DNA of 18,719 nt, from positions 1 to 18,719 of the forward strand of contig JAHQXB010000149.1 in NCBI GenBank assembly GCA_029856435.1, given 5' to 3'. This DNA comes from Candidatus Jordarchaeia archaeon (GTDB lineage Archaea; Asgardarchaeota; Jordiarchaeia; Jordiarchaeales; Jordiarchaeaceae). The notes below the pieces were generated by a model, which saw only the letters and a program-made list of their open reading frames with translations, was not told the DNA's origin and did not search any database. Position numbers and translations under genes: made by a program. How positions within the stretch are numbered: the stretch's first letter is position 1; each line of letters starts with the position of its first letter. Shown in pieces: positions 9,706 through 18,294 of the stretch.

Positions 9706-10482
9706 TTGCCACGCATCAACTTGATACTAGCTTCCAGGTTCAGATCCTCGACTGAACGTGCTAGTATTCTTTTAGAAACTACGGACTTTGATGCACTCTT
9801 TTTGGGTTTTCCAGAAAATTTTGGAGAAAGTTTGAATCTTTACCGATTAGGAATTATAAGTGAGGAGGAGCTTTGGAACGACTATATAAATATGACAGGA
9901 TTATCAGGTCCTTTTGCAAATTCTTTAAGATATAGGCTAGAACCTCTAATCAAAAAATTACCCTTAATCGCACACGACCATGATTTTGAAATTTATGGAT
10001 TCGAAGATTTCCAATACCATATACGTTTAAGGGGGTTTGCTGAACAGCAACTTCTGCTGGAGTTCAAATCACGCGCAACAGGAAAGATAAATCCAGACGA
10101 GTGGCGTGCTCTACTTAGAGAAGAGTTAGAAACTACAAAACTTTTGGAGGAAAAAATTGTTAATAACCTTCAAGAAAAATGCGCGAAACATAACAATTCT
10201 GTTTTCATCTGCGCTGGACTTGTAAATAATATTAAGAGAAAACTTAGCCCCATCTTCAATGTCAAAGTCATCTGCTTAGAGCGTTACTGGAAATCTCCAC
10301 TAGAGGTTTTAAAAACACTCTTTATTCTAAAAGGATTTGATAACATTCCAGATAATATAGTCAAACTATGCATAAAACAGCACTTAGAGTACCTTGACTA
10401 TATACTCCTCTACGATAATATTGATACAGCCCACGAAGCTTGGGTCAGAGAACTTAAACCATATATGATCAAAAAAGGTTAG
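9706..10482 (+). CDS. Hypothetical protein (258 aa, alpha/beta)
   Basis: Long ORF with protein-like composition and a TTG start after a GGGGTGTGA SD-like site. No family recognised. Confidence 0.65.
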   Translation: MPRINLILASRFRSSTERASILLETTDFDALFLGFPENFGESLNLYRLGIISEEELWNDYINMTGLSGPFANSLRYRLEPLIKKLPLIAHDHDFEIYGFEDFQYHIRLRGFAEQQLLLEFKSRATGKINPDEWRALLREELETTKLLEEKIVNNLQEKCAKHNNSVFICAGLVNNIKRKLSPIFNVKVICLERYWKSPLEVLKTLFILKGFDNIPDNIVKLCIKQHLEYLDYILLYDNIDTAHEAWVRELKPYMIKKG

Positions 10483-14410: not shown

Positions 14411-14518
14411 GCGGCTGTAGTCTAGCCTGGTTTAGGACCCAGGCCTTCCAAGCCTGTTACCCGGGTTCGAATGAAAAAGGAAGGAAGCTTCTTTCCGAAA
14501 TTCCCGGCAGCCGCACCA
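14411..14518 (+). tRNA. tRNA-Gly(TCC) with a 30-nt intron at 59/60; CCA encoded
   Basis: Acceptor GCGGCTG/CAGCCGC, D-stem GTCT/GGAC, anticodon stem CAGGC/GCCTG with TCC at 14447-14449, T-stem CCGGG/CCCGG. Spliced length is 78 nt. Confidence 0.95.
14472..14501 (+). other. tRNA-Gly intron, position 59/60, strict BHB
   Basis: Outer helix GGG/CCC, central helix TTCG/CGAA, bulges AA^T and AT^T, inner helix GAAA/TTTC. Confidence 0.92.
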
Positions 14519-14663
14519 AACCTACTTTTACTAAGCATAAGAATAGGAGTAAAGACAGAAATGTTTCAAGTAGGGCCTAGATCTGATTGAAAATAAACTG
14601 TTAATGAACTTGTAGAAAAAACAAAAATAGGGATGTTATGTGGTGCCGTCGGCCGGATTTGAA

Positions 14664-14693
14664 GTCGCCTTCTGCCAGGGACTCTGACAGCAT
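14664..14693 (-). other. tRNA-Phe intron 3 (30 nt), position 53/54, relaxed BHB
   Basis: Central helix CGCT/GGCG, bulges GG^A and AC^T, inner stem CTGTCAG/CTGGCAG. Confidence 0.88.
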
Positions 14694-14716
14694 CCAGCGA
14701 CAATCGGATCTTCAGT

Positions 14717-14747
14717 TTCGCCTTCCGTCAGAAAACTCTGACAGCAT
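14717..14747 (-). other. tRNA-Phe intron 2 (31 nt), position 30/31, BHB
   Basis: Outer helix AG/CT, central helix CGTC/GGCG, bulges GG^A and AA^A, inner stem CTGTCAGA/TCTGACGG. Confidence 0.88.
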
Positions 14748-14769
14748 CCGACGCTCTCCCGGGCTAAGC

Positions 14770-14793
14770 TTGTCGCTATTTTTTGCGAATAGT
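14770..14793 (-). other. tRNA-Phe intron 1 (24 nt), position 9/10, relaxed BHB
   Basis: Central helix GTCG (exon 4-7)/CGAC, bulges TA^A and AA^G, inner stem CTATT/AATAG, no outer helix. Confidence 0.85.
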
Positions 14794-14848
14794 TACGACG
14801 GCACCTGGGAGAATTTGGGCGACGGCAAAAACAAGTTTTTTTCACAAC

Positions 14849-14862
14849 TTATTAAATCTTTT
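14849..14862 (-). promoter_or_regulatory. Putative BRE/TATA promoter of tRNA-Phe
   Basis: On the minus strand, AAAAGA followed by TTTAATAA (14856-14849), just downstream of the tRNA-Val 3' end. Confidence 0.5.
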
Positions 14863-14877
14863 GTTTTTTTCTTGGGT

Positions 14878-14985
14878 TGGTGGGCGAGGCAGGATTGTCA
14901 GATATAGTGTCCAGAGCACTATACCTTTTGAACCTGCGACCTCCGCCACGTCAAGGCGGTGTCATGGCCGCTAGACTACTCGCCC
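14878..14985 (-). tRNA. tRNA-Val(GAC) with a 32-nt intron at 59/60; CCA encoded
   Basis: Acceptor GGGCGAG/CTCGCCC, anticodon stem CCGCC/GGCGG with loop TTGACGT, T-stem GCAGG/CCTGC. Spliced length is 76 nt. Confidence 0.94.
14895..14926 (-). other. tRNA-Val intron, position 59/60, BHB with a U-C mismatch in the central helix
   Basis: Central helix TTCA/TGAC, bulges AA^A and AA^T, 9-bp inner stem GGTATAGTG/CACTATATC. Confidence 0.9.
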
Positions 14986-15030: not shown

Positions 15031-15139
15031 GTGTGTGGGTTCTTGAAAGAGTAGGGGTTGAAGTGATTGCTGAATTTTTTGATAGGGGGATATATTTGTT
15101 TCGTGTTTTTTGTAGTAGTGTTTGGTGGACTCAGCGGGA

Positions 15140-15166
15140 GTTTCACCTTTTGAGTTTTCTCTTGGT
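15140..15166 (-). other. tRNA-Ala T-loop intron (27 nt), position 59/60, strict BHB
   Basis: Outer helix GGG/CCC, central helix TTCA/TGAA, bulges AA^A and AC^T, inner CC/GG plus a GAG-AAAA-CTC hairpin. Confidence 0.92.
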
Positions 15167-15203
15167 TTTGAACCCGCGGCCTCCTGGCTGCAAACCAGGC
15201 GCT

Positions 15204-15225
15204 CTTGGCTTCCTTTTTTGGGAAT
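15204..15225 (-). other. tRNA-Ala D-arm intron (22 nt), best register 22/23, relaxed BHB
   Basis: Central helix TGGA/GCCA (3 bp plus A-G), bulges AG^A twice, inner stem TTCC/GGAA. A flanking AAGA repeat makes the register formally ambiguous, but the mature sequence is the same. Confidence 0.82.
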
Positions 15226-15276
15226 CTTCCACTGAGCTATGAGCCCACCTATCCATGTTAGAAGTGTTGGGTGGTA

Positions 15277-16083: not shown

Positions 16084-18294
16084 TTAAAGGAGAAACATTG
16101 TGGATAGTATCCAGAGTATTTGGGCTGCTCCGTCGCCGGTGGCGACCCCTGCTAGTGCGTTTTGGTATTTCATTTCTTCTTTTTGGTATTGTTCTTTGTT
16201 TGCTTTGTTTATACGGTAGACGTAGTAGTTCAGTATTCCTCCCAAGAACATTGTGGTGGCTATGTATGGCGGTATTATTAAGCCTACCGCCAAGGAGATG
16301 GGGGACCAATCATATTTGGCTAGTGCTAGTCCAACTGCGAAACCGGCGATGAAGAATACTGCGGCGCCTATGGGGATTGCTCCTGCGCCTTGATCGCCAC
16401 CTATGAACCAGCTTTGCAAATAGAAGGGTTTGGATTGTTCGTAAAGGAATTGGAACCAAGTTGCTGTGGGGTCGGTTGGTGTAGTAGGTAGTCCTGCTCC
16501 TGTTCCTCCAAGCCAGAGGGTTCTCAGCTCTACCATGCTCATGAAGAATAGTCCTGTAACTGCGGCTGCTGGTGCAGGAAACTGGGCGGTGCCGAATCCT
16601 CCATATGAGTAGAGTAGCATTATGATGAATGCAGATATGAAGGCGCCGGGAACTATACCTATTAGCATTGATTTTGTGATTATTTTGTCTTTTACTTTTA
16701 GTTCTCGTCCTACTCTGACTCTTGCAATTAGTCTTGCTGCTGATTGTTGCCATGTTCCGAGTATTGTGGTGAAGATGACGATGCTGGGAAGGTTTACGGA
16801 GAATAGTAGGATTGCGGGTACGACTATGGAGTCGGTTAGGTAGTTGGCTGCGATTCCTGCTTCGCCCAGAACAACTGTGAGCCACCATCCGGAGAAGGGA
16901 AGGAGGGGGGTGGTGGCTAAAATTAAGTACCAGGGGACATCGAGAACTTTGATTCCTAAAATATTTTGGCTTAGGGGGTTGTTTGTGTTGAATATTAGCA
17001 TGGTGCCTACAGCAAAAAATGCTACAGATATAATCATTGGAAGTAGTTTCCGCCTATCTACTTGTATTGTTTCTTTGAATCTGGCGGTGGCCAATGTGGT
17101 TGATTGTTTAACTTTTGCTAATCTGCCCATTTTTTCTACTTCCAAGTAGGGGGCGGCTTGTTTGGCGTCGATTTTCCCTTCGGCTGCCGCCTTAATTATC
17201 TGCTCACGAATTTCTTTCATTTTTTTCTGGTCTTCGCGGTATTTTAAGAGATTCTTAATAACTAATTCCCAAGTTATGTAGGATACTAAAACGCCCATAG
17301 AGGTGTAGTAGATCATAGGTAGCATGAAGTGGGTTCCGTAGGTTGCTAGTCGGCTTCCGCCTTCCCAAACAATCCATACAATAATAGACCAAACAGCCCC
17401 CCCGAAAATTACTAATGCTCTTTTCCACCCTACAAAGTATCCTATAGCGCCTATGAGGGGCGAGTTTGCAATTCCTAGAAAGTTGGGGAGGGGACTAGAT
17501 GTCAACCATTGAATGAGGGTCTGCTGCCACTGAGGCAAAGTGCTTAACCACAACGTTTTGAAGGGATTAAGTACGGCTAGCCAACTTGGAGAAACCGAAA
17601 CCGTGGGTAGTTGGAATATATTCTGCTTTGAAGCTACACCCAAAGCGGTGAATATCCCTGTGTATGCTGCTCCCACTCCTATTCCTTTAAGGAGTGTGCG
17701 TTTTGCTTCTTCTACTTCTCCTAGTCCCTCAATGGTTCTGTAAACGGGAACTGCTCCTGGCCATGGTAACTTTAACAACTGTTCTTTTAGTGGGAACACT
17801 AAAAATAGTCCCAGTACTCCCGCAAAGAGGCCTATGGTAATTAGAAGTTCGGGAGTAATTAGGCTATCATACCAGATGTTGCCACTTAGATTTCCAAATA
17901 GGGAATTAACAAAGTAGAATACTGGGTCAAGCTTTCTCTGGCTAATTGTCCAGGAGTAGATGACTATTGCGGGTAAGCTGGCTATCACACCAACACCCAC
18001 TAGAATTGATCCCTCGGCAATGGTGGTAATTATAACATTTTCCTGAGGATTGTATTTTCCTCTAAGTGATAGAAGAATGTATCCCACTAAAACCGAACCG
18101 GCTATGAAGGTGACGCCGGTCTTTAAACTAGTATAGATTGCGAGAAAGACATATAGAGTGCCAACAATGAGGCCGTAAATGATGGCCCGCTTGGTAATGG
18201 GCGACTTAATTTCAGAATCCGTTTCTATGGAAGGATCATGCACAATTTTTCTGGGCAATAAGAATACCACGCACAATTTTTCTGGATATAACAA
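16084..18294 (-). CDS. OPT-family oligopeptide transporter
   Basis: ITKRAIIYG, YTSLKTG, ENVIITT, GVLGLFLVFPLKEQL..LPWPG, FPAPAA and ALAGVATGDG, with many TM helices. The likely start is GTG at 18243, given the TATA position. Confidence 0.85.
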   Translation of the reverse strand: MLYPEKLCVVFLLPRKIVHDPSIETDSEIKSPITKRAIIYGLIVGTLYVFLAIYTSLKTGVTFIAGSVLVGYILLSLRGKYNPQENVIITTIAEGSILVGVGVIASLPAIVIYSWTISQRKLDPVFYFVNSLFGNLSGNIWYDSLITPELLITIGLFAGVLGLFLVFPLKEQLLKLPWPGAVPVYRTIEGLGEVEEAKRTLLKGIGVGAAYTGIFTALGVASKQNIFQLPTVSVSPSWLAVLNPFKTLWLSTLPQWQQTLIQWLTSSPLPNFLGIANSPLIGAIGYFVGWKRALVIFGGAVWSIIVWIVWEGGSRLATYGTHFMLPMIYYTSMGVLVSYITWELVIKNLLKYREDQKKMKEIREQIIKAAAEGKIDAKQAAPYLEVEKMGRLAKVKQSTTLATARFKETIQVDRRKLLPMIISVAFFAVGTMLIFNTNNPLSQNILGIKVLDVPWYLILATTPLLPFSGWWLTVVLGEAGIAANYLTDSIVVPAILLFSVNLPSIVIFTTILGTWQQSAARLIARVRVGRELKVKDKIITKSMLIGIVPGAFISAFIIMLLYSYGGFGTAQFPAPAAAVTGLFFMSMVELRTLWLGGTGAGLPTTPTDPTATWFQFLYEQSKPFYLQSWFIGGDQGAGAIPIGAAVFFIAGFAVGLALAKYDWSPISLAVGLIIPPYIATTMFLGGILNYYVYRINKANKEQYQKEEMKYQNALAGVATGDGAAQILWILSTMFLL
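18240..18285. repeat. Exact 15-bp direct repeat GCACAATTTTTCTGG, two copies (18240-18254 and 18271-18285)
   Basis: Read directly from the sequence; 31-bp period. Confidence 0.9.

Follow-up and report, generated by a model that had tools for sequence, protein, structure and literature searches.

A tRNA-Phe(GAA) gene split by three introns with relaxed splicing motifs in an archaeon assigned to the Asgard class Jordarchaeia/Freyarchaeia

The window analysed here, a stretch of 18,719 nucleotides from a draft genome of a Candidatus Jordarchaeia archaeon, carries at 14641..14802 on the minus strand a real tRNA-Phe(GAA) gene that is split by three introns. The gene was first recognised in a sequence-only reading of the window, and that observation is confirmed. 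The analysis puts a probability of roughly 93% on the reading that this is the functional and sole tRNA-Phe(GAA) gene of a Jordarchaeia/Freyarchaeia Asgard archaeon, with introns that are spliced by the endonuclease EndA via relaxed motifs.

On the minus strand the gene starts with the 7-nucleotide 5' strand of the acceptor stem and ends with the complement of that strand, the discriminator A and an encoded CCA (14643-14641), for a total of 162 nucleotides. Exon 1 (14794..14802) consists of 9 nucleotides and supplies tRNA positions 1-9. Exon 2 (14748..14769) has 22 nucleotides and contains positions 10-30, that is the D arm and the 5' side of the anticodon stem. Exon 3 (14694..14716; 23 nucleotides) covers positions 31-53, with the GAA anticodon loop, the variable loop and the 5' side of the T stem, and exon 4 (14641..14663; 23 nucleotides) holds positions 54-73 and the CCA. 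The exons are separated by intron 1 of 24 nucleotides at site 9/10 (14770..14793), intron 2 of 31 nucleotides at site 30/31 (14717..14747) and intron 3 of 30 nucleotides at site 53/54 (14664..14693), all on the minus strand.

Removal of the introns, which account for 85 of the 162 nucleotides, leaves a product of 77 nucleotides with the encoded CCA. This 77-mer adopts a cloverleaf as its minimum-energy fold and is identified by Aragorn as tRNA-Phe(gaa). The anticodon GAA lies in a 7-nucleotide loop, A73 and G20 are present, the T loop is normal and the arms are standard. The spliced tRNA can be aligned with the tRNA-Phe from 20 other Asgard genomes. The earlier claim that removals of 24, 31 and 30 nucleotides yield a textbook archaeal tRNA-Phe agrees with both the Aragorn call and the fold, and the intron share and the length of the first exon had been counted correctly. 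From the sequence alone there is a one-base ambiguity at two of the boundaries, which could lie at 8/9 or 9/10 and at 30/31 or 31/32. The sites 9/10 and 30/31 were adopted because the bulge-helix-bulge geometry settles both, and the choice has no effect on the sequence of the spliced tRNA.

In this geometry, a stretch of four exon bases, ending two bases upstream of the cut, pairs with a stretch of four in the intron that ends two bases ahead of the 3' cut; each cut is located inside a 3-nucleotide bulge, and an inner helix forms within the intron. All three tRNA-Phe junctions show 4/4 central pairs and 3-nucleotide bulges. The central helix is built on tRNA positions 4-7 for intron 1, 25-28 for intron 2 and 48-51 for intron 3, and the inner helix (h') contains 5, 8 and 8 pairs, respectively. 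No more than 2 bp of the outer helix (h) can be paired, if any. The motifs are relaxed HBh' and not full hBHBh', because the outer helix forms at none of the three junctions. The introns had been described as three non-canonical introns of the bulge-helix-bulge type, and this description holds at every junction under a strict pairing rule (central pairs 4/4, 3-nucleotide bulges and no more than one of the first 5 inner pairs missing).

Three free deletions might make almost any GC-rich stretch look like a tRNA, and the deletions here were picked by eye under relaxed motif rules that are permissive. Against such a chance origin, only 3 of 377 same-length placements within the gene pass the strict rule. 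The pass rate of random genomic placements is about 0.2%, and when the introns were shuffled in place, none of 20000 trials passed at all three junctions jointly. A spliced alignment of the mature tRNA-Phe along the whole genome, with long insertions allowed, gives a single outlier, with a score of 193.9 at this locus and 93.7, which is background level, for the next best. In addition, orthologs with the same exons occur elsewhere, as described below. The strict-rule, ortholog and genome-wide controls together refute the chance reading.

The proteins encoded in the window are 97% identical to those of Candidatus Jordarchaeia MAGs and 83% identical to those of a complete Candidatus Freyarchaeota chromosome. 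Because of these identities, the host is assigned to the Asgard archaea, class Jordarchaeia/Freyarchaeia, and is placed outside the Thermoproteales. Four further species of the genus and one metagenome contig carry the same tRNA-Phe gene, again within an Ala-Val-Phe-Gly cluster, and the architecture is known from five species of this one genus. Pattern searches for tRNA-Phe in the sister family of the class (f2) and in a sixth species of the genus (G012) returned spurious matches or other tRNAs.

Among the four closest genomes, all 77 exon columns are invariant, whereas 19 of the 85 intron columns and 10 of the 16 trailer columns vary. In the Freyarchaeia ortholog 3 exon bases differ, two of which make up a compensatory change of the 27:43 pair, and the helix of intron 2 retains its pairing with the changed base of that pair. 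All 16 introns of the five orthologs have 4/4 central pairs and 3-nucleotide bulges. When the pairs were scored over the five orthologs, 93% of the pair cells were paired in register versus 30-62% when the partner was slid by 1 to 3 columns. Covariation was absent from the intron helices, since no pair had changed on both sides among these five sequences, a set too small and too similar for such a count, and shuffles did equally well. The signal in the intron helices is best described as conservation of pairing, not covariation.

The Freyarchaeia ortholog is located at 1547648-1547842 of the complete circular chromosome (L062:1710-1904), flanked by the listed genes for Val(GAC) and Gly(UCC). 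Its four introns measure 27, 29, 30 and 32 nucleotides, and the fourth, of 32 nucleotides, is situated at site 59/60 and has a perfect motif. The published table for this genome, the only complete one from the Freyarchaeia, lists 38 tRNAs, from which Phe is absent; Cys, His and Glu are likewise unlisted. A pattern search with exon 3 found no second Phe gene in the chromosome. The location of the missing Freyarchaeia tRNA-Phe, together with its fourth intron, seems to be new here. The sequence-only reading had warned that a genome with such a gene could wrongly appear to lack tRNA-Phe, and this is what has happened for the Freyarchaeia genome, where the published table has no Phe and the ortholog is present.

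Standard tools do not report the gene. With default settings, Aragorn makes no tRNA call in the window and reports two tRNAs for the entire 3.54-Mb genome. The Rfam tRNA model has no match in the window at its gathering score, a cut-off that is reached at six places in the genome; with E values up to 10 it gives partial matches on three neighbouring genes and leaves the Phe gene unmatched. The expectation that standard finders may miss this gene is therefore true for Aragorn and for the Rfam tRNA model. As the earlier reading had proposed, the genome was also searched for another tRNA-Phe(GAA). No copies of the exons were found elsewhere in the host genome, and the genome-wide spliced alignment described above yielded no second candidate. 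The tRNA-Phe(GAA) gene is single-copy in the assembly, which is a draft of 181 contigs with a completeness of 97.8% and an estimated contamination of 5.7%.

For a wider inventory, 35 compact tRNAs taken from two further Asgard genomes served as references in spliced alignments. The scan indicates about 40 interrupted tRNA loci in the host genome, many of them clustered on contigs C94, C110, C27, C102, C22 and C81; this list is rough, as the references are distant, the boundaries are noisy and the Phe gene itself was mis-split through a copy of its acceptor strand in the leader. For this genus, the decoding of phenylalanine depends on a single gene that escapes common tRNA finders, and where tRNAs seem to be missing from these Asgard genomes, the likely cause is a failure of detection, not biology.

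The locus could also be a decaying pseudogene, with a working tRNA-Phe gene on a contig that was not assembled or not binned. Bins often miss tRNA genes, the assembly is a draft, and the gene is not recognised by standard models. This explanation is highly improbable in view of the conservation pattern, with exons that are invariant in four species where the introns and flanks vary, and with a fifth species in which the stem change is compensatory. The gene also has a conserved promoter-like element of its own. Furthermore, the locus is also present in the complete circular Freyarchaeia genome, for which neither the exon-3 search nor the published table gives a second Phe gene.

If the gene is functional, at least one of its inserts might still be handled in another way, through other cut sites, by another route of removal or by retention in the RNA. 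The one-base ambiguity at two boundaries and the lack of an outer helix in all the motifs leave room for this, as does the report that intervening sequences in Asgard tRNA genes often have no canonical motif and that none of them has been proven to be spliced (10.64898/2026.10.13.758758). In addition, the fold predicted for the precursor with its leader extends the helix of intron 3 across its 3' bulge. However, the exact 4-bp helix and the 3-nucleotide bulges recur at each junction of each ortholog, and retention of any insert would wreck the D, anticodon or T arm. The sites 30/31, 53/54 and 59/60 are also spliced by EndA in other archaea (PMC4090602). We consider different handling of an insert to be very unlikely, and favour removal of all three introns by EndA. 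An exact search of public metagenome contigs for the ligated 9/10, 30/31 and 53/54 junctions gave no match, a result of little weight as mature tRNAs are seldom assembled. A search of metagenome contigs with exon 3 retrieved one contig (L146), which is unspliced and is the same as genome G001 at all sites checked in the Val-Phe region.

Motifs that lack the outer helix require a splicing endonuclease of broad specificity. The host genome contains two EndA paralogs of about 190 amino acids each. One resembles the catalytic subunit of Aeropyrum pernix EndA (E 3e-45), to which it aligns at both the catalytic His and the loop region. The other has a Ser at the position of the catalytic His in the alignment, which fits a structural subunit. 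There is one RtcB gene (G000 C93:302-1636, minus strand), and its match reads through one in-frame TGA. The predicted alpha/beta-type EndA and the RtcB of the host would suit splicing at relaxed motifs. According to PMC5829648, only the alpha-beta and epsilon types of EndA cut non-canonical introns. The comparison with the alpha2 beta2 enzyme of A. pernix (PDB codes 3p1z and 3ajv) is based on the end-to-end alignment of one host paralog with the catalytic subunit; the A. pernix enzyme is a heterotetramer with broad specificity, and the host pair is predicted to be of this type.

From these elements we infer the transcription start, the splicing and the order of the cuts as follows. The gene probably has its own TATA-type promoter, from which a precursor of about 190 nucleotides would be made. 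On folding of this precursor, each intron would form a relaxed HBh' motif with its exon, in which the exon bases just upstream of the cut pair with the 3' part of the intron in the 4-bp helix, two 3-nucleotide bulges carry the cut sites and an inner hairpin is formed within the intron. The two-subunit (alpha/beta type) EndA would cut at the bulges, and RtcB would ligate the four exons. RNase P would then trim the leader to give the 77-nucleotide tRNA with its encoded CCA.

The putative promoter is a TATA-like box at 14849..14856 on the minus strand (-54 to -47), which is conserved together with a preceding A-rich stretch and was assigned by position only. It would put the start of transcription near -24. 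Roughly at this point, at 14820..14826 on the minus strand (-24 to -18), the presumed 5' leader contains an exact 7-nucleotide copy of the 5' strand of the acceptor stem. The copy is present in 5/5 species, and in 28 other loci that were tested the best match to the acceptor strand was at most 5/7. Without the leader, the minimum-energy fold of the precursor does not contain the three motifs. When the leader is included, the leader copy is predicted to pair with the 3' acceptor strand and the motif of intron 1 forms; in the same fold the intron-3 helix is lengthened, as mentioned above. One speculation based on these folds is that the leader copy acts as a decoy on the 3' acceptor strand, which would release positions 4-7 for the intron-1 motif. 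The presence of this conserved acceptor-strand copy in the leader seems to be new here.

Introns 2 and 3 resemble each other closely. Within each of five genomes they differ at 1, 1, 3, 5 and 6 of about 30 positions, whereas orthologous introns show up to 11 differences, which exceeds the differences within a genome. Several of the substitutions that separate the species are found in the same column in intron 2 and intron 3. A local self-alignment with control loci was used to score internal repeats, as blastn-short was too strict. The Phe gene reaches a score of 38, compared with 20 or less for 43 other candidate tRNA loci and a 99th percentile of 33 for intergenic sequence. The two introns are situated in one gene, some 22 nucleotides apart, and their similarity persists across species. 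No other copies of introns 1-3 were found in the host genome, and the family does not span different tRNA genes.

The internal repeat and the changes in step suggest that an intron was copied within the gene and that the two copies then evolved in concert. Introns 2 and 3 would stem from one intron that was duplicated within the gene, and their likeness would be maintained by gene conversion or by re-copying. For the combined proposal, in which an intron was copied to another site of the gene that is preceded by similar exon sequence and was homogenised repeatedly, and in which the leader copy may be a decoy, we see the odds as even. The evolution of this intron pair in step between species seems to be new here. 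If the proposal is true, the pair is a trace, at the level of the sequence, of the spread of intron DNA in Asgard tRNA genes, and in any case it offers a small and well-defined system in which the copying of bulge-helix-bulge introns can be studied.

A preprint of October 2026 on 90 Asgard genomes regards the spread of intron DNA in Asgard tRNA genes as the central open problem and found no general route for it (10.64898/2026.10.13.758758). Its tally for these families is 2.2 intervening sequences for each tRNA gene, with as many as five in a single gene. By its own statement, its census is blind to genes that tRNAscan-SE does not detect. To judge by its main text, a within-gene pair such as introns 2 and 3 falls outside its test, because families of introns were required to span two isotypes. 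Earlier, introns, often non-canonical and multiple, were reported for 92-95% of the tRNA genes of one Freyarchaeia and two Atabeyarchaeia genomes, and Supplementary Data 4 of that study gives three introns for the tRNA-Phe(GAA) of each Atabeyarchaeia genome (Valentin-Alvarado et al. 2024, PMC11291895). As in these tRNA genes, the introns described here are short, occur several to a gene and occupy non-canonical sites, and the host is congeneric with the complete Freyarchaeia genome. In our comparison of tRNA-Phe from 20 other Asgard genomes, five families have no intron, five have one intron in the D arm and the Atabeyarchaeia have three. Two of the three Atabeyarchaeia introns are situated at 30/31 and 53/54, but their first intron is in the D arm, whereas that of the present gene is at 9/10.

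Multi-intron tRNAs with up to three introns per gene are well documented in the Thermoproteales, at non-canonical sites that include 30/31, 53/54 and 59/60 (Sugahara 2008; Fujishima 2010, reviewed in PMC4090602). HBh' motifs are known from the Crenarchaeota, and similar introns at different positions have been read there as the result of copying (PMC4090602). The present gene resembles these tRNAs in the number of its introns, in shared sites, in its motifs and in having similar introns at different positions. It differs in that it belongs to another phylum, and in that the similar introns lie within one gene, with none common to different tRNA genes. The sequence-only reading had suggested that triple-intron tRNAs might be extended beyond the Thermoproteales. 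The host is indeed an Asgard archaeon as judged by protein identity, but the extension is not new, because multi-intron tRNAs from Freyarchaeia and Atabeyarchaeia, including the triple-intron tRNA-Phe of the latter, have already been published. The present gene is thus a further example of a published phenomenon, with a few new details.

The Ala, Val, Phe and Gly tRNA genes form a conserved four-gene cluster. The tRNA-Val(GAC) gene (14878-14985, minus strand) has one 32-nucleotide intron in the T loop, at about 14895-14926, with 3/4 pairs in its central helix. This intron is present in the host genome and in G002 and G005, and is absent from the close relative G001, contig L146 and the Freyarchaeia genome, a distribution that reflects a recent gain or loss among very close relatives. 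The fourth intron of the Freyarchaeia tRNA-Phe was considered as a relative of the Val intron. No tRNA locus gave a better match, but with a score of 19 the likeness stays within the genomic background, which has a maximum of 28, and homology is not claimed. The tRNA-Ala(UGC) gene (15123-15246, minus strand) has one insert in the D loop and one in the T loop, and gives a partial match to the Rfam model below threshold (18.9 bits). The tRNA-Gly(UCC) gene (14411-14518, plus strand), with an intron of about 30 nucleotides in the T arm, converges on the Phe gene from the opposite strand.

A plus-strand frame of 89 amino acids (14638-14907) crosses the Phe gene in antisense and overlaps with the 3' end of the Val gene, and gene finders are likely to call it a hypothetical protein. 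Given its overlap with two tRNA genes and the lack of a match in Pfam, it was taken as spurious. Pfam also gave no match for two open frames of the window, at 16084-18294 (minus strand, 736 amino acids) and 9706-10482 (plus strand, 258 amino acids). Elsewhere in the genome, a candidate tRNA-His(GUG) gene with about four inserts is found at about 1900-2109 of contig C104 of G000 (L069). The gene for the catalytic EndA paralog (C104:1178-1756) is located a few hundred bases upstream of this candidate.
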